From the IMG/VR virus record IMGVR_UViG_3300045988_135019: a DNA stretch of 64,000 nucleotides. One strand, written 5' to 3'. This document shows, piece by piece, positions 2,963 to 52,528 of this stretch (positions are counted from its first letter, which is position 1; each line of letters begins with the position of its first letter). The notes beneath the pieces were generated by a model. It was not told the origin of the DNA. It saw nothing but the letters and a program-made list of their open reading frames with translations, and made no database searches. The position numbers and the translations under genes were made by a program. Source of the DNA: a virus.

Positions 2963-3562
2963 TTACTTTTCTACCTCGTCTACATGTACCGCTATTAAAT
3001 CAGCAAAATGCAACATCATAGCAAATGGATATTTATCATAAGCCGAACCTAAGGTATTCCAATCTTGTTGACCACTATAAGCACCCATATGCTATCTAAT
3101 CGCCATTCTTTCATAAGGATAAAGCTTAATATATTCAGAAATCATTAAAACTGATTTTTCTCCATGTCCATAAGGTATTTTATCATCTACCGTGTAATAA
3201 GGAACTTGCTCCCATTGACCTGTCTCTTTGTTTTTAACATTTCTAGTATCCTCAGCATAAAAATAAGTTTTGCAAATATCGTGTAACAAAGGACATATAA
3301 TATAACTTGTTTCGTCTTTAACATTCTCTAAAGGAAAAACTCTACTTTCTTTTAATTTAATAAATTCATTATAAACATTTAGGCTATGAACCAAAAGTCC
3401 TCCTTTATAAGCTCCGTGAAATCTTGTACTTGAAGGTGCTGTAAAAAAGTCTGACTTTTCTAAAAAATTAATTAACTCTTCTATTCCTTCTCTTTTAGTA
3501 CTTCTTAGCAACTCAATAAATTGATTTTTTAGATTTTGAATATCTAAATCTGTTAATTCCAT
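2963..3562 (-). pseudogene. HD-domain phosphohydrolase with an in-frame TAG at 3092..3094 (N-part 3095..3562, C-part 2963..3091)
   Basis: N-part has FHGAYKGGLLVHSL and LLHDICK and starts at ATG 3562 with AGGAGA upstream. Reading through the TAG in the same frame gives HMGAYSGQQDW...LHFADLIAVHVDEVEK up to TAA 2963..2965. Confidence 0.7.
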
Positions 3563-3572
3563 AATATTTCTC

Positions 3573-3776
3573 CTATCTTCTAAAATCATCATAAAATAGT
3601 CCCATATATTCAACCACTTCAACATTGTAATGCTCAAAAATTTCGTTCAAATCTCTTTCTTGTACAAATATAGCACCATTTTCTAATTCTAAATATTTTC
3701 CTTCTTCTATTTTGTCTTGTGCAGTATCTTTTAAAGCATTTGTAGTTTTCAAAGTTACTTTAAAAATCTTTTTCAT
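3573..3776 (-). CDS. hypothetical protein
   Basis: Track ORF in a co-directional packed array. Confidence 0.5.
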   Translation of the reverse strand: MKKIFKVTLKTTNALKDTAQDKIEEGKYLELENGAIFVQERDLNEIFEHYNVEVVEYMGLFYDDFRR

Positions 3777-4245
3777 AATTACTCCTTTCCCATTTATTAT
3801 ATATTAATTTATCTTTGCTCCACTCTTCTCCATAATAATTTTTAAGATATTGTTCTGCAAAATCTTCATATCTTAAACATTCTAATCCGTGGTCTTCTTC
3901 ATAATGGCAATTGTCACAAGCTGTAAATATATTCATTGGTATGCCTAAGCCACCTTGACTTCTTTTTATAAAATGAGCATTTGCATTATCCATTGGTACA
4001 TTCTTATGACAAAATATACATTGGTGATTGTCTCTTTCCCAAACTATTTGTTTTACTCCTTGTTGAATATCAGTAGCCTTAGTTCTATCTTTTTTCTTTC
4101 CTTTAATAGGTTTGATTTCTTTATATCCTTTCAATTTACATTTGTCACAATCATCTTTATCTATCTCAGATTTAATATCAGGATGATTACAGTAAAAATA
4201 CTTTTGGTATTTTTTAGACCTTATTCTTTGATATTTACAACTCAT
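3760..4245 (-). CDS. HNH endonuclease with Cys-rich N-terminus
   Basis: CIFCHKNVPMDNANAHFIKRSQGG...CDNCH. Start set at ATG 4245 (MSCKYQ) with GGGGAG upstream. Confidence 0.7.
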   Translation of the reverse strand: MSCKYQRIRSKKYQKYFYCNHPDIKSEIDKDDCDKCKLKGYKEIKPIKGKKKDRTKATDIQQGVKQIVWERDNHQCIFCHKNVPMDNANAHFIKRSQGGLGIPMNIFTACDNCHYEEDHGLECLRYEDFAEQYLKNYYGEEWSKDKLIYNKWERSNYEKDF

Positions 4246-5335
4246 TTTTAACTCCCCATTCATTTTTCATAGTATCAATCTCTTCATCGGAAAGCGTGTC
4301 AATTCCCATTTCTTTACATTCAGAAACAATTCCATCTATGAATACAGCCATTTCTTCTGTAGTATAGGTAGAAGAACCAAAATAGCATTGAAGTTGTATT
4401 CCAGATTTTCCATTAATTGTAACTTCTCCTAAATTTCTAACTAATCTCCATTCTTCTTCTATTCTACTAACAACATTTGGCTTTACAATAATATGAGTAA
4501 ATACTCCATATCTTCCTAACATATCAATATATACCTCATCTTTACTTTTATTAAGATATTTACCCATCTGTTGCATTAAGTGCCAAGCATATGAATTAGC
4601 ATCTTTGCTTCTTTTTTCAGATTTCTTTTTAATTTCTACAGCTAAGTCTCTATTTGATTTTATATAGTTATTTAAAGTATCTACAATATTCATATTTGTT
4701 GTTTCTAAAGTAATATTTAATTGATTTGAGAATTGGGAACTAATATTCTTAATTCGTGCAATAAAGTCCATACTTTCTTCTCCTTCATCTTTTTCTATAT
4801 AATTTTGATTTTTCATAAATACTAATATTCTTTCTGAATTATCGTTAAAACCACCCTTTGAATTAGTTCTCTTAATATTTGAAAGAATATGTTCTTTAAC
4901 AAGATTAAAACCTATTTCTTTAGCTATTTCTATACTATCTTCTACAAGTTTATATTCTAAAAAATTATTTATATTCAATATAAAATATCCATTGTCTACT
5001 AAGTATTCTTTTATATTTAAAAATGTAGGTTTTAAATAATTGTTTTTCCATTCTTCATATGTTGTACCTTCTGTATATGATTGATTTCCTATTTTATAGT
5101 CTTCTAAATAAAAGTATGGTGGTGAACTAAAAGCCACTCCTATCTTATTCTTCCATTCAGGAACTAATATCTCGCTACCTTGAGTTCTTATGTCTACATT
5201 TGTAGTATTGTTTGTTGTGTTTTTATAATCTATAGCTAATTGATTTAGTCTTTCTGTAAGTAGATAATTAGGGTCAGTGCCAAAATAGTTGACATGATTT
5301 TTAAGAGCACCACATATTCTCCCCCCCATCCACAA
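4235..5335 (-). CDS. C-terminal portion of a split DNA methyltransferase (SSPPYF motif IV), continuous with a NinB/Orf-like recombination domain (about 4235..4771)
   Basis: Frame after the G7 tract reads GGRICGALKNHVNYFGTDPN...AFSSPPYFYLEDY. The C-terminal 178 aa (from MDFIARIK, ATG 4771, GGAGAAG upstream) resemble lambda NinB as I remember it (RSKDANSYAWHLM; YFGSSTYTTEEMAVFIDGIVSEC). Confidence 0.6.
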   Translation of the reverse strand: MWMGGRICGALKNHVNYFGTDPNYLLTERLNQLAIDYKNTTNNTTNVDIRTQGSEILVPEWKNKIGVAFSSPPYFYLEDYKIGNQSYTEGTTYEEWKNNYLKPTFLNIKEYLVDNGYFILNINNFLEYKLVEDSIEIAKEIGFNLVKEHILSNIKRTNSKGGFNDNSERILVFMKNQNYIEKDEGEESMDFIARIKNISSQFSNQLNITLETTNMNIVDTLNNYIKSNRDLAVEIKKKSEKRSKDANSYAWHLMQQMGKYLNKSKDEVYIDMLGRYGVFTHIIVKPNVVSRIEEEWRLVRNLGEVTINGKSGIQLQCYFGSSTYTTEEMAVFIDGIVSECKEMGIDTLSDEEIDTMKNEWGVKNEL

Positions 5336-5802
5336 CTAAAATCATAATAATTATTATTAACATTATATTCTTTAAGTATTTCATCTACTGTTTTAATAGG
5401 GAAGTTCGCAGGTTTACTACAAACACCTTTCCCACCTAATCTAAAACAAGTTTCTATTTTTTTTATTGTACTATCTGTGTCGGGATAAATTTTTTTATTT
5501 TCTAATGTTTTACTAATAAAAAATTCTACTAGTTCTTTGCATTCTAAAACTTCTTCAATGCTCCATTTATTATAATAAATTCTAGTCTTAGCCATCAAAT
5601 CTTTGACATAATAATTAGTGATAGCTGAGTTTTTTACTCCACCATTTTCTAAGTTTATAAATTCCTTTTTTACTTCTTCAAAATTAGGTTTTGTGTAATA
5701 TGCTTTTCTAATTTCTTCAAATTCTTTTTCACTTATATTATATATATGTTTAGTAGATAAGGTTTTCCCTTTGTAATTGATTATTCTTTCATTATTTTCC
5801 AA
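5245..5802 (-). CDS. N-terminal portion of the split DNA methyltransferase (through motif I DFSCGWGG)
   Basis: Ends ...NNYYDFSCGWGG, then runs out of frame. Starts at TTG 5802, 10 nt after AGGAG. Confidence 0.6.
   Translation of the reverse strand: MENNERIINYKGKTLSTKHIYNISEKEFEEIRKAYYTKPNFEEVKKEFINLENGGVKNSAITNYYVKDLMAKTRIYYNKWSIEEVLECKELVEFFISKTLENKKIYPDTDSTIKKIETCFRLGGKGVCSKPANFPIKTVDEILKEYNVNNNYYDFSCGWGGEYVVLLKIMSTILALTLIIYLQKD
5321..5327 (-). repeat. G7 (C7 on the plus strand) homopolymer at the frameshift point of the methyltransferase
   Basis: Plus strand reads ...attct ccccccc atcc... The two overlapping track ORFs 5245..5802 and 4235..5335 change frame here. Confidence 0.9.
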
Positions 5803-5857: not shown

Positions 5858-6033
5858 GTATTTTTTGAAATATTTTTATAAATTGTACTACTTCTAATAT
5901 CTTTCCATAAAATTTTATAGTTATCTAATTCAAGATAATGTCCAGTTGATTTAATGTATTTTCCTATTATAATTGCACCATTTTTTAAGATACAATAAAC
6001 TTTTTGACCTTTTCTAAAATTATGATGAACCAT
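5854..6033 (-). CDS. small hypothetical protein (59 aa)
   Basis: Below the track size cut-off. ATG 6033 with GGGAGAAG upstream; MVHHNFRKGQKVYCILKNGAIIIGKY...; TGA 5854..5856. Confidence 0.35.
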   Translation of the reverse strand: MVHHNFRKGQKVYCILKNGAIIIGKYIKSTGHYLELDNYKILWKDIRSSTIYKNISKNT

Positions 6034-9000
6034 AATCTTCTCCCATTACGATATAATTAACTATAAAATCATCAAATTGGGTAGTAGACCTTTCCCATTT
6101 TTCTGTTTCTCTATCTAATGTCCATTTTCCTTCTCTTTCAAATGAAGGAATATTTAATATTCTACCTATTTCAAAAGGTTTGTTATCAAATATAGAGTTT
6201 TTAATTTTTACTTTTTTATTTTCTCCATTGTTTATTCTATATAAGTCTATCCATTTGCTTTTGCCTTTATCATTTATATCTACAACATACCACATTAGAT
6301 TATTTTCTTTGCTATCTTTAATATCTATATATCCAAAATATTGTAATTGATATTGTATTTTATCTTTTAATGAAATATCTTCATTTGGTAATTTATTAAT
6401 TAAATCGCTCAAGCATTTATAACTATCAAATCCAGAATATTGTTTATCTGTTTCTTTACTACAATATTCTTTTAAGTATAATTTTTTTACAGAATATTCT
6501 TTATCTTTCTTTAATGTTTTTTTGCCATATAGTTCATTATAAATATCCATAAAATGTAACAATTTACCTATATTCCCAAACTCTGCAAAATAATCCAATT
6601 TAATCAATGTTGTTATATCAGCTATTCCAATACTATTTTCTTTACAATCAATTAGTAAGTCTAAAAAGGTAGGATACTGTTTATCTTTAAGAAGATATAA
6701 TTTATCTCCAACTGTCTTTGATAAGCCTTTTATACTAGATATACTTTTATAAATAGTGTTGGTTCTTTTATCACAAGTATATTTTCCAAATGAATATCTA
6801 AATTTTGGAGAAGATAATTTAATTTTAAAATAATTTAATTCTTGAGTTAAGTTATTTGTTCTAGCAAAATCTCCTTCATATGAATTTAAAGTAACCGTAT
6901 AATATTCTAAAGGATAATGAGATTTTAAATAAGCTCCATATAGACTATCATAGGCATAAGCTAAAGAGTGGGAGCAGTTAGAAACAACCAATCCACTTTC
7001 ACTTATAAAATTATGAGCAGGATTTTCCATTTCAATATCATACACCCTATCCTCTCTCAGATATTCTATTGATACAATTTTTTCAATTTTCGTTGGAATT
7101 CCTTTTTCCATAACTTTTTTTCTACCATTTTTATAATGTATTTTCTTATGGCAATTATTACATAACCACATTAAATTGGTTTCATCATTATTTGTCCTGT
7201 CATGGTCTTTATGGTGCAATTCAAATTTTGACCCATCAAAAGTTTTATTGCATATAACACATGAATTTTTATTTTGGATATTTTTCATATATATAACTTT
7301 AAATTTATGATATTCTCCATTTTCTTTAACTTGAAAACCTTTTTCTCCTTTCTTTGGGATATTCTTTTCAAAGTTACCATCTGTAAACCTATAAGTATCT
7401 GGATGTTTTTCGTATAATCCTTTAATATATAATTCATCTCCTATAGCTAATTCTTGTAATTTTTTCTTGCCTAAGGGAGTAGGAAAACTATGGTTTAAAG
7501 TACAATCGACATAACATCCTGAAGAAGTTTTTACTCTATAGATTTTTTGTTTGCCAGTAAAATATATATTCACTATTTTATTTTTATGAATTCTATTATC
7601 GTCAAACATAGATAATGCATTCCCGTATCCTTGAGAATTATATTTTTTATATAAAGAAAGATGATTTGTTCTTTTTGCATATTCATAGTCATTTTTTATT
7701 AGATACATTTCTTCCAAAGTTGGATAAAAAACATTCCTTTTTTGCCCCAATCTTTGAATTTTAGTATCTCCAGCTAAACAATTGAAAGAATATCTTGCAG
7801 CATCTTCTACTATTTGCCAACTTTCTTCAAAATGATTTTCTGTTCCAACTTGCTTTTTCCAACCTTCTAATAAATTGTTTTTTAATTCTACTAGTTCCTT
7901 TTCTTTAAATTTTTTCTTAGCAATTTTTTTAATAATGCCATAAGAATTATCTTCTGGAACTCCAAGCCATATCAAATATTTCATAATTAATTCTTGATAT
8001 ATCATTCTGTGCGAGCCATCTATCAACAGTTCATCTAACTTCTCTATTCCTGTAGTATAAGGTTTTCTATCAATAAAATCTTGCAATAGACTAGCACATC
8101 CTGGTCTTAAAATCGCCACAAAAGCTGACATTTCTGCTACAGACCTTGGTTTATATCTTTTAACAAGTCCAGTTGCATAATCACTATCCACCTGATTTAT
8201 TGTAGCTGTTAATCCATTTGCATAAATATCCCAAGTTTTATCATCTAGCTTTTCTGTTAATTCTGCTATACTTGGAGTTTTTATTCCTGCTAATTTACAT
8301 GTATCATTGATTAATGCCCATACTGAAACAGTTAATAAATCATTTTTTAAATATTTATAATTATCACTCTCATAACTTGTGATATTTGCACAAATTACAT
8401 CTCCAGCTTTAACTAATCCTACTTCTTCACTAATTTTTTTATCCATCAAAAGTGTGCTGCAGGGATGCTGTGCAATACTTTCTATAACTCCGACAAAATG
8501 TTGACTATCGTCTATCAAATTTTTCCATTTTTCATTTTCATAATATTTGCTTTCAGTATAAGATTTTTTTACTTTAGAGAGTTCAGCTAAATCAATTGCT
8601 ATGTCATTATATTCGTTTATATTTAATCCATTTGCTTTACACCATAGTCTAAATCCGCTAGATATTTGCAAAGGCTTATATGCTAACATCCACCAACATC
8701 CATCTTCTCCTAATAATTCTTTAGAAGCATCATAGAATGGCTGAGTATTAGCACAATTGAAATCTATATCTGGAAGAGAATGGCTTTCAAGTATCCTTGT
8801 TTTACTCATAAATCTACTTGGAAATAAAGTAATAGGAGCTGAAATTCTGTCTATGTTTGTAAAGCCTAATAATTTATTGATGTAAAAACTTGGAGCAGAA
8901 CCTCTGCCTGTTTTAGTTATAACTCCATTATATTTTTCTACAGAATTTTTAATTATATAATAGTTTAATAAAAAATATTCTGCCATATTAGTATCTTCGA

Positions 9001-9958
9001 CTATTTGTGTTTCTTCTCTAATTTCTTTTAAATATTTTTTCCATTCAGATTGAGGAATATTTTTTCTTTCTTCTAACCATGCATTATTTAGTATTAATTT
9101 TAATTCTTTTAAAGGACTATCTGAAATTATAGGCATTTTTATTTCTTTGTTTATGTTTAAATTTTCTGCCTTATCGAATATCAAAGTATTATTTAATGCT
9201 TCTTGTATTTGATTATCATTTAAAATTCCTTGTTCTTTATATCTTTTTATTATAGTATCACTATCAGGATAATCTAATATAAAATTATCTTCTTCTGGAT
9301 AATTAATTCCTTTTGCTTTTAGAAACATATTTCTATATTTACTATCTTCTGGAAAAATATAATGACTATCATTTGCGTGTATAATAGGGATATTATATTT
9401 TTGACTATATTTTAATATCATTTTGTTATAATCTGCCTGAACCTTACAAGGATGAGCCTGAACCTCTAAATAGAAATTATCTTTAAAATAATTTTTCATT
9501 TTAATAATCCATTCATCTCTATTTTGTTCTTCCCTTAATCTTCCAGCCACACAAGCAGTTGTTACAACTATATTTTTAGGATTTACAGAAAATAAAAGTT
9601 CATCGTCTATTCTTGGTTTATAATAAAATCCAGAAATATTGCTTTCAGATAATAACCTATTTAAATCTTTATATCCATCTGTATTTAAAGCAATTAAAAC
9701 AATATGATAATTTGATTTATCTTTTTCTTTTCTATTTGGAACATAATATGCTTCCATTCCAGAGACAACTTTTAAACCATATTTTTCAGCTAATGTTAAA
9801 GCTTCATAGATATTCCCATTATAACCATGTTCTGTTGTAAAATATATTTTATGTCCTAACTCCTGAGCTCTTTTCATATAGTCTTCTGGTTTTACTACAA
9901 CATCTAAAGTAGTTATATTAGAATAATGAGAATGTTTATGATAATTTTCATATCTCAC
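6020..9958 (-). CDS. dnaE: DNA polymerase III alpha-type replicative polymerase (PHP domain), interrupted by an intein
   Basis: N-terminal PHP motif YHKHSHYS...TEHG. Conserved FN(K)SH..AY motif reads ARYSFN / intein / CSHSLAYAY. GTG start 9958 with GGAGAAATAAAG upstream. Confidence 0.9.
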   Translation of the reverse strand: MRYENYHKHSHYSNITTLDVVVKPEDYMKRAQELGHKIYFTTEHGYNGNIYEALTLAEKYGLKVVSGMEAYYVPNRKEKDKSNYHIVLIALNTDGYKDLNRLLSESNISGFYYKPRIDDELLFSVNPKNIVVTTACVAGRLREEQNRDEWIIKMKNYFKDNFYLEVQAHPCKVQADYNKMILKYSQKYNIPIIHANDSHYIFPEDSKYRNMFLKAKGINYPEEDNFILDYPDSDTIIKRYKEQGILNDNQIQEALNNTLIFDKAENLNINKEIKMPIISDSPLKELKLILNNAWLEERKNIPQSEWKKYLKEIREETQIVEDTNMAEYFLLNYYIIKNSVEKYNGVITKTGRGSAPSFYINKLLGFTNIDRISAPITLFPSRFMSKTRILESHSLPDIDFNCANTQPFYDASKELLGEDGCWWMLAYKPLQISSGFRLWCKANGLNINEYNDIAIDLAELSKVKKSYTESKYYENEKWKNLIDDSQHFVGVIESIAQHPCSTLLMDKKISEEVGLVKAGDVICANITSYESDNYKYLKNDLLTVSVWALINDTCKLAGIKTPSIAELTEKLDDKTWDIYANGLTATINQVDSDYATGLVKRYKPRSVAEMSAFVAILRPGCASLLQDFIDRKPYTTGIEKLDELLIDGSHRMIYQELIMKYLIWLGVPEDNSYGIIKKIAKKKFKEKELVELKNNLLEGWKKQVGTENHFEESWQIVEDAARYSFNCLAGDTKIQRLGQKRNVFYPTLEEMYLIKNDYEYAKRTNHLSLYKKYNSQGYGNALSMFDDNRIHKNKIVNIYFTGKQKIYRVKTSSGCYVDCTLNHSFPTPLGKKKLQELAIGDELYIKGLYEKHPDTYRFTDGNFEKNIPKKGEKGFQVKENGEYHKFKVIYMKNIQNKNSCVICNKTFDGSKFELHHKDHDRTNNDETNLMWLCNNCHKKIHYKNGRKKVMEKGIPTKIEKIVSIEYLREDRVYDIEMENPAHNFISESGLVVSNCSHSLAYAYDSLYGAYLKSHYPLEYYTVTLNSYEGDFARTNNLTQELNYFKIKLSSPKFRYSFGKYTCDKRTNTIYKSISSIKGLSKTVGDKLYLLKDKQYPTFLDLLIDCKENSIGIADITTLIKLDYFAEFGNIGKLLHFMDIYNELYGKKTLKKDKEYSVKKLYLKEYCSKETDKQYSGFDSYKCLSDLINKLPNEDISLKDKIQYQLQYFGYIDIKDSKENNLMWYVVDINDKGKSKWIDLYRINNGENKKVKIKNSIFDNKPFEIGRILNIPSFEREGKWTLDRETEKWERSTTQFDDFIVNYIVMGEDYGSS
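6977..7780 (-). mobile_element. intein (268 aa) with embedded HNH endonuclease in Pol III alpha
   Basis: Starts CLAGDTKI (Cys codon 7780..7778) and ends GLVVSN (Asn codon 6979..6977), followed by +1 Cys. Internal CVICNKTF..HHKDHDRTNN..NLMWLCNNCHKKIH. Confidence 0.85.
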
Positions 9959-12220: not shown

Positions 12221-13288
12221 TTAAATAAAATTTGATAAATCATCTTCTATTTTTTTATCTTCTTGTTCTTCTTCAAACATTTTTTGCATTTCTAGGTAAT
12301 CTTGATAATATTGGCAAACATCACGAAAACCACATAAATTAGCACAATAAAATGAAGTATAAGGAGTTATCTCTTTAGGTTCCCACCAAGATTTATCTTT
12401 TTCAAATTGTTCTATCTCATTAATTTTAGCTTCTATAAATAATTGTGTTTCAATTTTTCTTTCTGGAGAAAAATCATAATAACAAATATAAGGAACTATT
12501 GTATATTTTTCTTTAATAGAAGAAGGCAAGTTGTCAAAAGAATTGTTTTCTGCAGCTTCATCTACCATCATTTCTATATCTAATTCGCTGTATTGCTTTA
12601 ATGCTTTAAGTTCTTTTGTTATATCAGCTTTTAATTTTTCTAAAATAAAACCTCTCTCTGCTATAGTAGTTCGTACATTTCCATTTTTTAACTTATAACT
12701 TATTTCTACATATTTAAGCATTTCCCAAGCTAAATCTTTTACTTCATATCCCATTTGTTCCATAGCCAAACCATATAAAATTAATTGTCTACCCTTTTCT
12801 TGTAATTCTAAATTACTATATTTGCTGCTTGTTTTATAATCTCTAATTGAAATTGTTCCATCTTCATTATATATAACTAAATCTATAATTCCCTGTAAAT
12901 AGCTTTCTCCTAATTGAAATAAAAACAATTTTTCTGTTTCCACTTTATTATAATTTGGTTTTTTATAAGTAGAAGCAAACTGAATTATATCTTTCTTCCA
13001 TTTATTTTCTATATTTTCATTTGGAAATATAATGTCTAACATTTTAGCTTCTTCTAACATATTATCTATTTCTTGAGAAAAGTTAATTTGTTTTCCATTT
13101 TGAATTTCTTCTAAGCATTTATGAATTCTTGTACCAGTGAAGCTATATATATTGTCTTTTTGAGCTAAGTGTTCCATATATGTTTGCCAATATTCCCAAC
13201 CACAGTTATCTACAGTATTTAACCTACTTATAGAATAAATAGGAATACCATTATCTCTTAATTCTTTAATTTTTTCTTTGACTTCCAT
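12221..13288 (-). CDS. PD-(D/E)XK exonuclease, Cas4/RecB-like with C-terminal Cys cluster
   Basis: IIDLVIYNEDGTISIRDYKTS (D...DxK) and C-terminal YCANLCGFRDVCQY, plus an N-terminal Cys. Confidence 0.7.
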   Translation of the reverse strand: MEVKEKIKELRDNGIPIYSISRLNTVDNCGWEYWQTYMEHLAQKDNIYSFTGTRIHKCLEEIQNGKQINFSQEIDNMLEEAKMLDIIFPNENIENKWKKDIIQFASTYKKPNYNKVETEKLFLFQLGESYLQGIIDLVIYNEDGTISIRDYKTSSKYSNLELQEKGRQLILYGLAMEQMGYEVKDLAWEMLKYVEISYKLKNGNVRTTIAERGFILEKLKADITKELKALKQYSELDIEMMVDEAAENNSFDNLPSSIKEKYTIVPYICYYDFSPERKIETQLFIEAKINEIEQFEKDKSWWEPKEITPYTSFYCANLCGFRDVCQYYQDYLEMQKMFEEEQEDKKIEDDLSNFI

Positions 13289-14263
13289 TTAGTTCTCCTT
13301 TAATAAATTTAAAAATATTTTCTCTAAAACCTTGACAACTATACTGTTTCCTGCTTGATTATATAAATGAATATCATTGTTCACTTTAGAAGCTTTTTCA
13401 AAATCGCTATCTGAAAATCCCATTAGTCTCCAACACATTCTAGGGCTTGGCTTATATAATTTATTATTATACCAATATTTTTTATTATAATTCTGAACAT
13501 TTCTACATGTTAAAGTACCAGTTGTATTTGTTGAAGTAGTTATGGTATCCATTTCTGAAAAATCATAAAGTTTCATTCTCTTTGTTCCAATACCTTGTCT
13601 TTCAGGCAAAGAATTGATATAATCAATAAATTCTTCTAATGTTGCATTTTTATTTTTTATTAACTTATATCTATTGTAAAAATTATAAGTTATATCATCT
13701 TGCTCTCTAAAGTCTAAGAAATCTTGTAAATTATTGGATTTTATTTTCTCTATAGGAAATTCAAAATTATTTTGACCTAACATAGAAACACAAATCACTC
13801 TTTGCCTTTCTTGTGGTATTCCATAATAACTTGCATTTGTTAATTGGATTTTGCTATTATATCCAAGTTCTTGTAATTGGTTAATATAATCGTTCACAAC
13901 ATCTATATGAGGTTTTGACAAAATATTCTTTACATTTTCCCAAACGACATATTTTGGTTTTATTTTTTTTATTATTCTAATTGTTTCATATATTAAACTT
14001 GAACGTGTTCCACTACCTTTAATTGCACCTGCTTGTTTGCCAGCACTTGATACATCTTGACAAGGACTTCCATGCATTATCAAATCAACTTTTATGTCCT
14101 TGTTCCATTTTGTTATATCTTGAGGTTCAAAATTTGTGTCATTTATTGCATTGTAACTCTTGACAGCATATTTGTCAATTTCAACATAGTCAACTACATC
14201 AACATTCATTCCTATATTTTTGAGAGCTTTAGTGCATGCTCCAATTCCTCCAAACAATTCCAA
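13289..14263 (-). CDS. C5-cytosine DNA methyltransferase. Track start is a TTG; the likely native start is ATG 14318, currently out of frame because of the (AG)11 repeat.
   Basis: Motif I ELFGGIGA, motif IV GSPCQDVSSAG, motif VI WENVKN, motif VIII QERQRV, motif X NQAGNSIVV. Confidence 0.85.
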   Translation of the reverse strand: MELFGGIGACTKALKNIGMNVDVVDYVEIDKYAVKSYNAINDTNFEPQDITKWNKDIKVDLIMHGSPCQDVSSAGKQAGAIKGSGTRSSLIYETIRIIKKIKPKYVVWENVKNILSKPHIDVVNDYINQLQELGYNSKIQLTNASYYGIPQERQRVICVSMLGQNNFEFPIEKIKSNNLQDFLDFREQDDITYNFYNRYKLIKNKNATLEEFIDYINSLPERQGIGTKRMKLYDFSEMDTITTSTNTTGTLTCRNVQNYNKKYWYNNKLYKPSPRMCWRLMGFSDSDFEKASKVNNDIHLYNQAGNSIVVKVLEKIFLNLLKEN

Positions 14264-14273
14264 TATAGATATG

Positions 14274-14295
14274 CTCTCTCTCTCTCTCTCTCTCT
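14274..14295 (-). repeat. perfect dinucleotide microsatellite (CT)11 on the plus strand, (AG)11 in the coding sense
   Basis: Counted directly: 22 nt from c14274 to t14295, between RBS-ATG 14318 and methylase motif I. Confidence 0.95.
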
Positions 14296-14331
14296 ACAGC
14301 CACAAAGGTTTTAGCCATTTTTCTATTCCTC

Positions 14332-14691
14332 CTACATTATTGTTTCTTTATATAATCTATCTAATTTAAGTTGTTCTATCAACTCTACTTGTTCTGGTGT
14401 CATTTCTTCAACCGTATTAAACCAATCCCACATTTCTTCTACCCAGTCTTCAAATTCATCTTCATTTGCAAATAAATCAAAATATTCATCAAATGCATCG
14501 CAGCCCCATACGCAAGTTCCTTCATAGTCAGTAAAAGGATAATGCTCATCGTTTATAATATCCATAAGAGCTTTAAATATTCTGTCTGGGTCACTCATAT
14601 CTCCTACATATTTTCCATTTATCCACACTCTTTCAGCATGATTATCATCATTCCATCTTATAACACTTAATTTATTTTTCATTTTCTTCAA
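14332..14691 (-). CDS. hypothetical acidic protein
   Basis: Track ORF in the packed array. Confidence 0.6.
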   Translation of the reverse strand: MKKMKNKLSVIRWNDDNHAERVWINGKYVGDMSDPDRIFKALMDIINDEHYPFTDYEGTCVWGCDAFDEYFDLFANEDEFEDWVEEMWDWFNTVEEMTPEQVELIEQLKLDRLYKETIM

Positions 14692-16284: not shown

Positions 16285-17043
16285 TTATTCCTCACTTTCC
16301 AGCAATTCTTGTAATCTCTTTTTTATATCTAAAGATTTTGTGTTCATTGCTTTTAATCTTGTTATTTGATAATCATTTTTTCGATAACTTGCATAAATAT
16401 TTGTATTTTTTGATATTATTTCTTTAGTCTTTTTTATATCATAATCAATTCTGTCTATTATATCTTTTACTTTTTGCTTTGGAATATAATCATCTAATAA
16501 ATGCTTGTAACTTCCGTCTAAAAAACTATCCTTTGATATTACAATATACTTTTCTTCTTCAAGCGAATTTATTTGCAATGTTTGTATTGCAGATTTTATT
16601 ATTTTTAATTCTTCATTCTCTTTTAATACTCTTTTATATTCTGATAAAATATGCTGTTCACATCTGTTTCTTTCTAACATACATTCTTCTTTTTCGTATC
16701 TGCCACATATATTACATTGATTAGTAGAACATAATTTTAATCTTTCTATATCTTCTTTTATAGAACTTCGTTCATTCTTAATACTATTTTCTTCCATTAT
16801 TTCATCTTGTAGTTCTTTAATTTCTTCTTCAACTTCTGCTATTTCTTCTCTTATATCTAAATCATCTGCTCCTGCATCTAATCTAGCCTGCTGTGTTCGA
16901 TATAGTTCTTCTAATCTTTGTTCTAATTCTTCTATACTATTTTCTTTATCTATTTCCATTCTGTTTATTATGTCTTGTGCGTCTATGTTTTCTACTATTT
17001 CTTCAACTTTTTTTATATTTTTCTTAATTCTATTTATATTCAC
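16285..17043 (-). CDS. hypothetical coiled-coil protein with a central Cys cluster
   Basis: GTG start 17043 after AGGAGGTG. CSTNQCNICGRYEKEECMLERNRCEQH. Confidence 0.6.
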   Translation of the reverse strand: MNINRIKKNIKKVEEIVENIDAQDIINRMEIDKENSIEELEQRLEELYRTQQARLDAGADDLDIREEIAEVEEEIKELQDEIMEENSIKNERSSIKEDIERLKLCSTNQCNICGRYEKEECMLERNRCEQHILSEYKRVLKENEELKIIKSAIQTLQINSLEEEKYIVISKDSFLDGSYKHLLDDYIPKQKVKDIIDRIDYDIKKTKEIISKNTNIYASYRKNDYQITRLKAMNTKSLDIKKRLQELLESEE

Positions 17044-17821
17044 TTAAAACACCTCCTAATTTTTCTTCTTGCTCCTTCTCTAACTTTTTCAACCATTTAT
17101 TTCTAATTCTATTTTCAAATTCTTCTTGCCCCATTTTCATAAATTTATATTTCTTACCTTTTTTTTCTAACATTATTTCAGTTTCCTTTATTTTTTTCAT
17201 AAAGTAATCAAATTTGTCTGGATATTGCTGCAATAAAAATGCCCATTCTTTCATTCTTGCCATAGGACATGCCATACAACCTTGTCTATCAAAATATAAA
17301 TAATAATCTTTTAATAATTCTTGATGTTTAGCCCATTCTAAGACATCTTTTTCTTCAATGTTTTCTTCTGCTAATGGATAACAACAATCTTGTTTCTCCC
17401 AATTTCCTATTTCATACTTAAATCTATGTGTTTCATCAACGCAAAATCCTATATATGCAACTGGTCTACAATTTTGAGATTTTATCCATTCTTCAAGTTG
17501 TTTCTTACAATCTAATTTGTAAAGATTATTGCACCATCTAGCTCTTCCATTAGGAAATCCATATTTGTTAAACAATTCTTCCCAACTCTTTCTAGGTCTT
17601 ATTTTAATAAATGGAATGTTTATTTGTTTGCACATTCTCTCCATTTCATCTACAACTTTTCTTGACCATTCCCAATCAGTTTCAAGTTCAAAATGTATAA
17701 CCATATCTAGTGGATATTTCTCAGGATTTTTTAATATTATAAAAAGCATATATAGACTATCCTTTCCCCCCGATACACTAGCATAATGTATTGGTCTTAA
17801 TGCTATATTATTCTCTTTCAT
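17030..17821 (-). CDS. PP-loop ATP-pyrophosphatase, PAPS-reductase-like family
   Basis: ASVSGGKDS PP-loop and C-terminal RQGCMACPMA. Confidence 0.75.
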   Translation of the reverse strand: MKENNIALRPIHYASVSGGKDSLYMLFIILKNPEKYPLDMVIHFELETDWEWSRKVVDEMERMCKQINIPFIKIRPRKSWEELFNKYGFPNGRARWCNNLYKLDCKKQLEEWIKSQNCRPVAYIGFCVDETHRFKYEIGNWEKQDCCYPLAEENIEEKDVLEWAKHQELLKDYYLYFDRQGCMACPMARMKEWAFLLQQYPDKFDYFMKKIKETEIMLEKKGKKYKFMKMGQEEFENRIRNKWLKKLEKEQEEKLGGVLSEYK

Positions 17822-24547: not shown

Positions 24548-25708
24548 TTAATTTCCTCCTTTTAATTTATATAAATAAGAAACATTGGCAATTAAACAAT
24601 TTAATAACTTTTGAACACTTGCCCAGTCGGTGTTATATCCTAAAGTTATTCTCAATGTTCCATTAATAAAATCTTCTGGTACATTCATAGCTTGTAGAAC
24701 ATAAGAAGGTTCTGATTGAGAAGCATGACAAGCTGAACCAATCGAAACATCTATTCCATTATCTATTAAAAACAATTGTATAGTTTGAGCATCTAAGTAT
24801 TTAAAAGATACATTTATATTATTACATACTTTTTTCTTAATATCTCCATTAAATCTTACTAAATCTCCAAACTCTTTTTTCAAGCTGTCCGTTATTTTAT
24901 CTCTTAGAACTTTAATATTATTGCCTTTTTCTTCCCATTCTTCAACAAAATCATTTAAACATAAAGCCAACATAAGATTTCCAAATACATTTTCTGTGCC
25001 TGACCTATAAGAATTCTCCTGTCCTCCGCCATAAATCAATGGAGAAATAGGAATATTTTTCTTTTTATATAGAATTCCTGTTCCTTTAAAAGCACCAAAT
25101 TTATGTCCTGATAAGGATAACAAATCATATTTCTTAACATTTATAGGATTAACTCCAACTGATTGAACACCATCAGTATGAAATACAACATTATTTGTCT
25201 TAGCTAACTTACTAATTTCATTTATTGGTTGAATTATACCTGTTTCATTATTTACAGACATAATAGATATTAATCTTGTTTGGGGAGTAATAGCATTTTT
25301 TAATTGTTCTAATTTAACAACTCCATCTTCATCTACATCAATATATTTAACTATAAATCCTCTTTCTTGAAGTTCTTTTGCTGCATTTAATATAGCAGGG
25401 TGTTCTATTTTACTCACAATAAGCTCATTTTTGCCTTCATATTTCTTATCCCTAGAGTACATAATTCCAAACAATGCCATATTATCACTCTCTGAACCAC
25501 CACTTGTAAATATTATTTCTTCTGGTGCACATTTTAATACATTTGAAACCATTTCTCTGGCTGAATTTAATATTTTTTTAGCTCTAATTCCAAAATTATG
25601 AACAGAAGAAGGATTTCCAAATATATCATAAAAATCATTTGTCTCATAAATTTCTTTGAATATTTTCATGTTTAATGGAGAAGTCCCAGCATAATCAAAA
25701 TATTCCAT
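24548..25708 (-). CDS. cysteine desulfurase (NifS/IscS-like class V aminotransferase)
   Basis: PLP-lysine motif LSLSGHKFGAFKGTGILY and catalytic loop SIGSACHAS. Confidence 0.85.
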   Translation of the reverse strand: MEYFDYAGTSPLNMKIFKEIYETNDFYDIFGNPSSVHNFGIRAKKILNSAREMVSNVLKCAPEEIIFTSGGSESDNMALFGIMYSRDKKYEGKNELIVSKIEHPAILNAAKELQERGFIVKYIDVDEDGVVKLEQLKNAITPQTRLISIMSVNNETGIIQPINEISKLAKTNNVVFHTDGVQSVGVNPINVKKYDLLSLSGHKFGAFKGTGILYKKKNIPISPLIYGGGQENSYRSGTENVFGNLMLALCLNDFVEEWEEKGNNIKVLRDKITDSLKKEFGDLVRFNGDIKKKVCNNINVSFKYLDAQTIQLFLIDNGIDVSIGSACHASQSEPSYVLQAMNVPEDFINGTLRITLGYNTDWASVQKLLNCLIANVSYLYKLKGGN

Positions 25709-26459: not shown

Positions 26460-27350
26460 TTAATTTAATTTAGAAACAGAATAACTGTCTAATATTTTGT
26501 TTGCTCTTTCTTCTTCATCTCTAATATATATTTGAGTAGTAGAAATACTAGCATGACCTAATACATCTTTTATTCCATTTATATCTACACCTTGATTATA
26601 TAATGCTGTAGCTATACTTCTTCTAAGACTATGGGCAGAAATATTTTTATTTATTCCAGCTCTTTTAGTAATTTTTTTTACTGTTCTATGAATACTTTCA
26701 GGCATCATTGGTGTACCTTTGTCTGATATAAATATATTATTATAAATAGATTGTTTTCTAGCATTATCTATATAATCTTTTATAGCTTCAAAAGTTTCTT
26801 TATTTAATACCATCTTTTGTATTTTATTACCTTTTCTTCTAACATTTATAAAATATGCTTCCTTATTTGTTTCAGGAATTACTACTTTATAACAATCTGA
26901 CAATTGTAAACTTATAACTTCGCTAATTCTAAGACCTGTATTAAGAAATAAAGTAAACATTGCTATTTCTCTTTTTGATTTACAATTATCCAAGAATATT
27001 CTTTGTTCTTCTGGTGTTAAAAATGTTCTCTTTGATGGATTTTTTTGTGGTTTTAATTTTTTTAATACATACATAGCTGGATTATTATTAATATTATATT
27101 TTCTATCTTCCATTAAATAAATATAAAAACTATTTAATGCTTGACATTTTGGTTTAATTGAGTTATCAAGATTATTTTTTTCATTTCTTAAATAATTTAC
27201 CCAATCAATAATATCACTAATTCCTAATTCTCCTAATTTATTTACATTTTCTATATGTGAATAAGTTAAAAAATCTTCTATCCAAGTTCTATAATTTTTC
27301 TTTGTTTTCTCTGAACTTAAAGAGTTAATAAATAAATCTAATTCTTTCAT
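26460..27350 (-). CDS. tyrosine recombinase/integrase (XerC/D-like)
   Basis: HSLRRSIATALYNQG...LGHASISTTQIYI. Start at ATG 27350 (MKELDLF) with GGAGAGG upstream. Confidence 0.85.
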   Translation of the reverse strand: MKELDLFINSLSSEKTKKNYRTWIEDFLTYSHIENVNKLGELGISDIIDWVNYLRNEKNNLDNSIKPKCQALNSFYIYLMEDRKYNINNNPAMYVLKKLKPQKNPSKRTFLTPEEQRIFLDNCKSKREIAMFTLFLNTGLRISEVISLQLSDCYKVVIPETNKEAYFINVRRKGNKIQKMVLNKETFEAIKDYIDNARKQSIYNNIFISDKGTPMMPESIHRTVKKITKRAGINKNISAHSLRRSIATALYNQGVDINGIKDVLGHASISTTQIYIRDEEERANKILDSYSVSKLN

Positions 27351-27380
27351 AATAACCTCTCCTTTTTCTATTATGTACTT

Positions 27381-27409
27381 ATTATAGCACACTTCTTATA
27401 AAAAGTCAA
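27381..27409 (-). promoter_or_regulatory. sigma-70-type promoter (TTGACT-17-TATAAT)
   Basis: Minus strand: TTGACT 27409..27404, TATAAT 27386..27381. Confidence 0.65.
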
Positions 27410-39244: not shown

Positions 39245-39835
39245 TATTTTAAAAAACACCCCTTAGCTCATCCACTCCCACGATAAAAAAACAAAAACTC
39301 GAATAACTCTACTCTCTCATAGCTTTCCAACAACAAAAATAACAATTTTTACCAATTCGTTAAAATAAAACATTAAATTAACTCTAACCCAGTATTATCA
39401 ACCACTTCAAGGATTGTACGACATATTAATTAGTTGAAAATAGGAAAACAAAGTCAATAAAAATAGTAAATAAAAAATCTGAGAATTTCTTGAAATATAG
39501 GCAAAATTTGATAAAATAGCTGCGAAATTCGCAGATATTCGTAAAAATATGTAAATATTTCCAAGAAGGATAAAATTGATAAAGGGTGGGCTAATTAAAA
39601 AAAAGGGAGAAGAATTATTTCCAGTAAAGGTAAAATAAGAAGTACAACCAATGCCAACTAATTCTTCTTGAAAAGGTACGGGAAGGGGGGAGTAGGTAAA
39701 AAACTGAGAGTAGGATAAAAATGGGGGAAGGGTGTAACGCCTACCCCCATATAAGAAAATAATAAAAAACAATCATTGGAGAAAAAAGTTAGATAAAAAA
39801 AGGTTAAGAATAAAATTCAAATTTTTTTTCTCTTT

Positions 39836-39872
39836 ATATATTATTTATATATTATTTATATATTTATATATA
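39836..39872. repeat. pure A/T tract with tandem 11-mers ATATATTATTT (DNA-unwinding-element-like)
   Basis: 39836..39846 and 39847..39857 are identical, followed by a partial copy. Located immediately upstream of the iterons. Confidence 0.6.
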
Positions 39873-39933
39873 GGAAAAATTCGAGACTGGGAGACATACT
39901 CTCCCAATGGATACCAGTGTTGTCTTTTTGAAA

Positions 39934-40075
39934 CTATAGGCTTTTTTGTACATCGACTGTAGGCTTTTTTGTACACCCACTATAGGCTTTTTTGTACACC
40001 CACTATAGGCTTTTTTGTACACTTTTTAAAAAAATCTGACAAAAAAGTTTGAAAACCATAGGCTTTTTTGTACAC
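39934..40075 (+). repeat. five iterons C(T/C)(A/G)TAGGCTTTTTTGTACA; four in tandem at an exact 23-bp period plus one next to the promoter
   Basis: Copies at 39934..39952, 39957..39975, 39980..39998, 40003..40021 and 40057..40075. Confidence 0.85.
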
Positions 40076-40101
40076 TTTTTTAAGAAATTTTAAAAAAAGT
40101 A

Positions 40102-40130
40102 TTGACATTGGAAAGGAAATATGTTATACT
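40102..40130 (+). promoter_or_regulatory. sigma-70-type promoter (TTGACA-17-TATACT) with an upstream A-tract
   Basis: TTGACA 40102..40107, TATACT 40125..40130. Shares AAAAAAAGTATTGACAT with the promoter at 43093. Confidence 0.7.
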
Positions 40131-52453: not shown

Positions 52454-52528
52454 GCTCCCTTAGTTCAGATGGTAAAACAACTGACTTGTAATCAGTAGTC
52501 GTTTGTTCAAATCAAACAGGGAGCTCCA
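52454..52528 (+). tRNA. trnT: tRNA-Thr (UGU)
   Basis: Acceptor GCTCCCT/AGGGAGC, anticodon stem ACTGA/TCAGT, loop CTTGTAA, T arm GTTTG-TTCAAAT-CAAAC, TCCA. Confidence 0.8.

Follow-up and report, generated by a model that had tools for sequence, protein, structure and literature searches.

A candidate AG-repeat switch in a C5-cytosine methylase gene of a human gut phage lineage

A perfect (AG)11 repeat lies between the start codon and the first catalytic motif of a C5-cytosine DNA methyltransferase gene in the IMG/VR virus record IMGVR_UViG_3300045988_135019, of which we analyzed a stretch of 64,000 nucleotides, hereafter 'the window'. Eleven units leave the gene out of frame with its own ATG; near-identical genomes in public metagenomes carry other tract lengths, in frame and out of frame, in front of the same protein. 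We propose that (AG)n, between the ATG leader and motif I, is a hypermutable repeat that toggles an orphan phage C5-cytosine methylase, and we put the probability of this reading at roughly 0.65. A sequence-only reading of the window had singled out the gene as a candidate phase-variable methylase, and natural variation supports the idea at its own level: on and off alleles occur on backgrounds separated by 0-1 substitutions in about 3.8 kb. Phage methylases are usually viewed as fixed anti-restriction equipment; this one is apparently toggled by a repeat.

The (AG)n tract and its natural alleles

The methylase leader is served by a GGAGG (14332..14328, minus strand) that overlaps the TAG stop of an upstream open reading frame (ORF), stands 9 nucleotides before ATG 14318..14316 and is identical in all related loci. 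The codons MAKTFVAV follow, and the first base of the tract, an A at 14295, is the last base of GTA, the final codon of this leader. Tandem Repeats Finder reports 11.0 copies with 100 % matches. At this length the frame opened by the ATG ends at TAA 14231..14229 after 29 codons (MAKTFVAVEREREREHIYIGIVWRNWSMH). TAG 14296..14294 closes the methylase frame, which cannot open before TTG 14263. The (AG)11 of the window is thus an off length, placing the methylase body (13289..14263) out of the frame of ATG 14318. Full-length relatives begin MAKTFVAVE(R/K)ERESISILELF, and it is at ATG 14318 that the methylase really begins in alleles with an in-frame tract.

We recomputed the reading frames for tracts of 6 to 16 AG units. 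Lengths of 6, 9, 12 or 15 units, all divisible by 3, encode (ER)n and give a single ORF of 339 to 345 amino acids, MAKTFVAV(ER)nSISILELFGGIGA; every other length in this range leads to a stop after 27 to 38 codons. A first-order Markov model of the window, which has 26 % GC, predicts about 5e-9 occurrences of (CT)11 and 4e-10 of (AG)11 per window, about 1e-9 overall, and every other dinucleotide run within the 64 kb has at most 5 units. We thus have a perfect repeat, far beyond chance length, with a unit that is not a multiple of 3, located between a start codon and motif I, as expected of a contingency locus. Much of this had been anticipated by the sequence-only reading: the positions that it gave for the GGAGG, the ATG, MAKTFVAV, (AG)11, the TAA, the TAG and the TTG are all confirmed on the minus strand; its claim that 12 units, or steps of 3 from 12, restore one MAKTFVAV(ER)n frame agrees with the recomputed frames; and the expected count of about 1e-9 bears out its judgment that a perfect repeat of 22 nucleotides is improbable by chance.

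The in-frame form of the protein (343 amino acids) matches PF00145 over residues 18-339 with 209.3 bits (cut-off 22) and TIGR00675, the dcm family, with 186.5 bits (cut-off 100.65), and M.HhaI aligns with it over its full length (E = 2e-27). Motifs I (ELFGGIGA), IV (GSPCQDVS, with the catalytic Cys), VI (WENVKN), VIII (PQERQRV) and X (AGNSIVV) can be read and align with those of M.HhaI. On these matches we class the product as a member of the C5-cytosine DNA methyltransferase family (PF00145/TIGR00675).

Are other tract lengths found in nature? A protein search with the in-frame reconstruction as the query led to a cluster at 90 % identity whose 97 members differ at the N-terminus; among the forms are MAKTFVAVEKERESISILELF, MAKTFVDVERERESISILELF, MAKTVVAVERESISILELF and MENKNAKTLETLRERESISILELF, as well as the tract-less MENKNISVLELF. 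Many members are forms of 324 amino acids that gene calling starts at the TTG (MELFGGIGA), and one of these equals the protein of the window. We then built in-frame proteins with 3 to 24 units on the methylase body of the window and looked them up by exact sequence in public assemblies: the 9-, 12- and 15-unit proteins (341, 343 and 345 amino acids) are present, and those with 3, 6, 18, 21 and 24 units are absent from the collection. The in-frame contigs that we read number 12 for n = 9 (from NCBI, ENA and Logan), 11 for n = 12 and one for n = 15. For the exact off-form protein (324 amino acids), the public assembly collection lists 56 blocks.

The DNA confirms these alleles. With leader and flanks identical, we read 8 units in one related locus (L004), 9 in ten (L007-L016), 10 in two (L003 and L024), 11 in the window and in L002 and L026, 12 in six (L017-L022) and 15 in one (L023), each assembly giving the majority allele of its sample only. 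Among the sample accessions listed, none holds both an on and an off allele, which speaks neither for nor against a switch. Repeat number in related phages, a comparison that the sequence-only reading had proposed as a check, therefore differs, with 8, 9, 10, 11, 12 and 15 units on an identical body. In a flank of about 3.8 kb, alleles of 9 (L008, L012-14), 10 (L024), 11 (L002, L026) and 12 units (L017) show 0-1 substitutions relative to the window. L024 can be compared with the window over 20,978 bp, where 3 substitutions and 2 indels separate the two; one indel is the AG tract itself. Tract length changes much faster than the surrounding sequence. The methylase body protein is identical across on and off alleles, and no off allele that we read carries a second disabling mutation. 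Fast change of the tract in front of a body that stays intact in both states is therefore to be expected of a contingency locus rather than of a pseudogene in decay: near-identical genomes are polymorphic in tract length and hold in-frame and out-of-frame alleles of an intact gene. One locus, L001, has an in-frame tract with a G-to-A interruption (AGAGAAAGAG...), which would stabilise the on state.

A leader module on diverged methylases, and a second variable run

The combination of leader and tract extends to more distant methylases. Diverse leaders (MENKNAKTLETL, MKNKNLKTLDVL, MDKTFVAV and MNRNEQNLEAV) run into (RE)n or (ER)n and then into (S/Q)IS(I/V)LELFGGIGA, and tracts of 6, 7, 9, 12 and 13 units were seen or inferred in these diverged leader lineages, bringing the number of tract lengths across the whole family to nine. 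In the MENKNAKTLETL and MKNKNLKTLDVL lineages, unlike that of the window, the on register is n mod 3 = 1. A scan of JGI metagenomes found one locus, L006, with 12 units in the MENKNAKTLETL lineage, where this length is off. Scans of IMG/VR found one relative, L005, without a tract, and a degenerate pattern requiring at least six AG units before LELFGGIG had no match in IMG/VR. A DNA search of cultured phages in INPHARED yielded no close genome: its matches were to the methylase core of unrelated phages, at 65-69 %.

Several of these methylases are 75-97 % identical to that of the window in the catalytic core and 78-95 % in the C-terminus, versus 22-40 % across residues ~160-280, the variable region between motifs VIII and IX. 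In the C5-methylase family this region determines target recognition. Because it has diverged behind a conserved leader and tract, a single leader-tract module probably drives enzymes of different specificity. The clearest case is L037 (ERZ27233003 k141_192062), which occupies the same genomic position as 13289..14318 of the window, has the one-codon leader variant MDKTFVAV and 13 units, and encodes a methylase with the same 22-40 % identity to that of the window across residues ~160-280. This suggests that target-recognition regions have been exchanged behind a conserved switch.

A second gene in the window is split by a run of its own. No G or C run in the window reaches 7 except one, a G7 on the minus strand; it separates ORF 5245..5802 (185 amino acids), which ends in NYYDFSCGWGG plus a frameshifted tail, from ORF 4235..5335 (366 amino acids), which contains SSPPYF. 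Eight G residues fuse the two into one ORF of 522 amino acids; G8 and G11 are in frame (on), G7 and G9 are off. Relatives carry G7, G8 and G9. Public contigs with the G8 protein on the body of the window number 26, a single one has the G11 protein, and off-frame fragments of 185 and 167 amino acids are common in public data. The protein cluster of this second gene has 127 members.

What does this gene encode? Direct Pfam, NCBIfam, PDB sequence and PDB profile searches gave no significant match. Its homologues often carry precomputed hits to PF01555 (N6/N4 methylase), its C-terminus matches phrog_72 (NinB/Orf-like domain), and its AlphaFold model (predicted local distance difference test score, pLDDT, 76.5) matches class I S-adenosylmethionine-dependent methyltransferases in the PDB, including amino-methyltransferases of the Trm11 type. 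From its motifs, the precomputed Pfam matches of its homologues and its predicted fold, we regard it as a putative amino-methyltransferase with a C-terminal NinB/Orf-like domain. All four combinations of states occur: C5-methylase and second gene both on (L039), C5-methylase on and second gene off (L001, L038, L040), C5-methylase off and second gene on (L025), and both off (the window and L024).

Mechanism, alternative readings and known systems

How would such a switch operate? Slipped-strand mispairing during replication of the phage DNA would add or remove AG units and shift the frame, by a mechanism and at a rate that we infer. With n divisible by 3 (6, 9, 12, 15), ribosomes loading at the strong GGAGG-ATG would make the full enzyme, MAKTFVAV(ER)nSISILELFGG...; with other lengths, such as the 11 of the window, they would stop after 27 to 38 codons, and the body would be reachable only from a TTG that lacks a proper ribosome-binding site. 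The lineage would thereby keep yielding methylating and non-methylating descendants, methylation being presumably lost in the off state. The modification of a virion would reflect the genotype expressed in the cell that produced it, so a newly switched genome would show its new state after the next infection. The benefit may be bet-hedging across hosts: 5-methylcytosine (m5C) would protect against cognate restriction enzymes, would expose the phage to methyl-directed Type IV nucleases and would carry costs, a step that we modelled on the agt contingency locus of phage T2 (PMC12633550). An independent poly-G switch in the putative amino-methyltransferase would raise the number of modification states to four.

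A broader picture can be drawn, to which we adhere only tentatively, since we doubt it somewhat more than we believe it. A portable cassette of leader and (AG)n would sit on C5-methylases with interchangeable target-recognition regions, next to a poly-G-switched methyltransferase, and populations would continuously make up to four phasotypes as an evolved bet-hedge against hosts whose restriction is either sensitive to methylation or dependent on it: a viral counterpart of the phasevarion, common in the gut virome.

Several observations weigh against a toggled methylase. In-frame contigs of the exact body number about 24, versus at least 56 off, a share of about 30 % that is near the one third expected under free drift, and there is no sign of net selection for the on or the off state. 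In one study, five runs share n = 12, which shows that the majority allele can persist unchanged from sample to sample. Finally, weak initiation may take place at TTG 14263, with the purine-rich tract about 10 nucleotides upstream acting as a poor ribosome-binding site.

Is the tract then drifting freely in a dispensable accessory gene? It could be an accident of Glu and Arg codons, subject to neutral slippage, in which case on or off would hardly matter and no switch would have evolved. The near-random share of in-frame alleles would follow, some close relatives have no tract (those beginning MENKNISVLELF), and long contigs that look complete are often in the off state. Against this, the body protein is the same in on and off alleles, and the off alleles that we read are free of further lesions. 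Perfect tracts of 6 to 15 units also persist in several diverged leader lineages and in front of different methylase alleles, and the genome, at 26 % GC, contains another methyltransferase-like gene with a variable poly-G of its own. We consider neutral slippage unlikely, although it deserves to be taken seriously.

Another possibility is that tract length has no consequence, enough active enzyme being produced at any length, whether through starts at TTG 14263 or through recoding, with RNA polymerase or ribosome slipping on the repeat. Gene callers do pick the TTG, a legal start, and report off alleles as proteins of 324 amino acids (an annotation that hides the real start and the switch); its purine-rich upstream tract was mentioned above, and a slippery repeat could in principle permit some polymerase slippage. 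To our knowledge, however, efficient recoding on AG dinucleotide runs has no precedent. The sequence-only reading had described this TTG as lacking a proper ribosome-binding site, and indeed no GGAGG-like site is found upstream of it on reading the sequence. Homologues also argue against a start at this position: motif I can be recognised in 111 of them, and in 108 of these the LF of the motif is preceded by 5 or more residues (mode 8). The three exceptions, P0002, P0074 and P0090, start with MELF or MLELF. P0002 and P0074 turn out to be repeat-off alleles when their DNA is read (L035 with 6 units, L036 with 9 and L037 with 13); P0090 (MLELF) is known from protein only. In addition, SISILELF aligns with GLRFIDLF of M.HhaI, a region that we take, from the HhaI structure, to include strand beta-1, and a TTG start corresponds to Ile15 of M.HhaI, inside this strand. 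The TTG-started product would therefore lack part of beta-1. Because homologues have longer N-termini, beta-1 would be truncated and no GGAGG-like site precedes the TTG, the off state is probably a true off, and constitutive expression appears improbable.

We give equally little credit to a prophage- or episome-borne phasevarion, in which switching methylases would mainly reprogramme host expression rather than protect phage DNA. The window does encode a Xer-type tyrosine recombinase (26460..27392), its gene content is SPbeta-like (YorH domain), and prophage methylases can alter the phenotype of their host, for example PamA as cited in PMC13076061. On the other side, a search of 185,579 species-representative genomes of GTDB found no close or prophage copy, only methylases of at most 65 % identity in metagenome-assembled genomes, and the stretches that we read in contigs of 104-121 kb hold only phage genes. 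This reading is in any case compatible with a repeat that toggles the methylase and does not exclude it. Errors of sequencing or assembly are a last alternative, since repeats are error-prone in polymerase chain reaction and assembly. For practical purposes we exclude them: every allele turned up repeatedly, in separate samples and with separate assemblers (at least 11 samples for n = 9, at least 6 for n = 12, at least 3 for n = 11, and two haplotype backgrounds for n = 10), and short reads span tracts of 16 to 30 bp well.

Large temperate SPbeta-like Bacillus phages of low-GC Gram-positive hosts (SPbeta, phi3T, SPR) carry self-protecting C5-cytosine methylases, and we know of no report of repeat switching in these enzymes. 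Our full-text literature searches retrieved no description of a repeat-switched phage methylase with an allele series. The mechanism is already known. What is new is its occurrence in a phage, in an m5C enzyme and with a dinucleotide tract, together with the conserved cassette and the double switch.

Two of the closest known parallels to the proposed phage switch are bacterial. In Helicobacter pylori, hpyAVIBM is an m5C methylase switched by an AG repeat inside its ORF: a change of units truncates the enzyme and strains vary in repeat number (PMC3411764). However, that repeat has 4-5 units (6-15 in the phage) and lies in a bacterial chromosome, and the role discussed for it is in host gene regulation, whereas the phage tract is found in a dispensable leader before motif I. 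M.MmyCI of Mycoplasma mycoides, a Type III mod gene, is off with (AG)12 and on and active with (AG)10 (PMC3498834; for Type III mod phasevarions in general, see PMC5909438). The repeat is of the same type and range (10-12 AG units), off alleles stop just past it and an in-frame clone is active; M.MmyCI differs in being a chromosomal N6-adenine Type III enzyme with a res partner, while the phage gene is an orphan, Type II-like m5C methylase.

Among phages, hypermutable repeats have been described for T2, T4 and others (PMC12633550). A close case is the poly-A tract of T2 agt, which toggles DNA glucosylation between the threats of TgvAB and McrA/BC (Gomez, Barrick and Waters 2025, preprint; PMC12633550). 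There, a phage-encoded repeat reversibly frameshifts a gene modifying the phage's own DNA, and the on and off states suit opposing restriction systems. We propose a like logic for the gut phage, in which the phage genome and the frameshift alleles are observed. The T2 system consists of a homopolymer in a glucosyltransferase gene of a virulent coliphage and has experimental proof; the gut phage has a dinucleotide tract in an m5C methylase and a poly-G in a second gene, and is known from its natural allele series alone. In the same article, a methylase gene of Bordetella phage BPP-1 is noted to contain a poly-G tract that has not been studied (Liu et al. 2004, as mentioned in PMC12633550). Hypermutable poly-G tracts of Campylobacter Fletchervirus (Sorensen et al. 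2021, Cell Rep 35:109214; as cited in PMC12823448 and PMC12633550) are likewise phage-borne repeats that give mixed progeny; according to these citations they lie in receptor-binding proteins and affect adsorption rather than DNA modification.

A natural allele series can already be found in public metagenomes: nine tract lengths in the family, and each of the four joint states of the two genes. Should the switch be confirmed, on and off subpopulations would have to be taken into account when hosts are assigned to gut phages from methylation and when methylomes are binned, and the trade-off between classical and methyl-dependent restriction would become testable in an uncultured gut phage lineage. 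The recent claim of contingency loci in phages would also reach beyond laboratory coliphages, to phages abundant in the human gut and to repeats of dinucleotides.

Genomic setting and minor observations

Table 1. Positions of the features discussed, in coordinates of the window
Feature	Position	Strand	Remarks
Shine-Dalgarno GGAGG	14328..14332	-	serves ATG of methylase leader; read directly
Leader, ATG and MAKTFVAV codons	14296..14318	-	start of full-length relatives
(AG)11 repeat, proposed switch	14274..14295	-	run 14295..14274; (CT)11 on plus strand; perfect
Off-state product, 29-codon leader ORF	14229..14318	-	ends at TAA 14231..14229
C5-cytosine DNA methyltransferase body	13289..14263	-	324 amino acids from TTG 14263
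PD-(D/E)XK exonuclease	12221..13288	-	PF12705, 69.5 bits; phrog_1218 and phrog_69, both annotated exonuclease
Poly-G tract, G7	5321..5327	-	run 5327..5321; C7 on plus strand
522-amino-acid gene split by poly-G	4235..5802	-	ORFs 5245..5802 and 4235..5335
Xer-type tyrosine recombinase	26460..27392	-	PF00589, 123 bits
Class V aminotransferase	24548..25708	-	near Xer-type recombinase
tRNA cluster Met-CAT, Pro-TGG, Thr-TGT	52208..52528	+

The portal, terminase-like and exonuclease genes of the window indicate a phage origin. Co-linear relatives encode ERF, a DnaB-like helicase, an SPbeta YorH domain and the DNA polymerase III alpha subunit, and all close relatives come from human gut metagenomes, in contigs of 104 to 121 kb. 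Samples in which this phage is present include ERR321390, ERR14026356, ERR14030674 and SRR35550772-774. By its portal protein, the best cultured relative is Thomasclavelia ramosa phage TR-TP1/2 (39 % identity). The Xer-type recombinase hints at lysogeny, episomal maintenance or dimer resolution.

The upstream neighbour of the methylase, the ORF of 119 amino acids, has no family match; downstream, an exonuclease gene begins immediately after the methylase stop. We considered this PD-(D/E)XK gene as a restriction partner and rejected it, as it matches the phage exonuclease families PF12705, phrog_1218 and phrog_69. A Type II restriction-modification system was likewise rejected: no cognate endonuclease lies next to the methylase, and methylase-off alleles are common in long contigs, genomes that an active cognate nuclease would not tolerate. 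Nor is this a phasevarion in the Type III mod or Type I hsd sense, the enzyme being a stand-alone, Type II-like m5C methylase. From its neighbourhood, we describe it as an orphan without evident restriction partner.

Other length differences were noted along the way. The second indel between the window and L024 is a T6/T5 homopolymer at ~3448, within an ORF of 181 amino acids without family match (3092..3637, minus strand); either a further frameshifting run or a mere error could explain it. Inside ORF 17030..17821 lies a minus-strand run of G6 (C6 on plus, 17766..17771); in L025, a base is inserted next to it and a compensating deletion follows 10 nucleotides further, the length of the run being constant. 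The DNA polymerase III alpha gene (6020..9958, minus strand) encodes 1312 amino acids with an annotated intein-splicing domain in the window, L024, L027, L038 and L040, and 1044 amino acids in L001, L025 and L039: this difference is a presence/absence polymorphism of an intein among close relatives. Lastly, direct repeats at 39833..40105 (a 23-bp unit in 3.9 copies, a 53-bp unit in 1.9 copies and an 11-bp AT-rich unit) coincide with a flip of coding strand and GC skew at ~40 kb, and may mark an origin or a divergent regulatory region.

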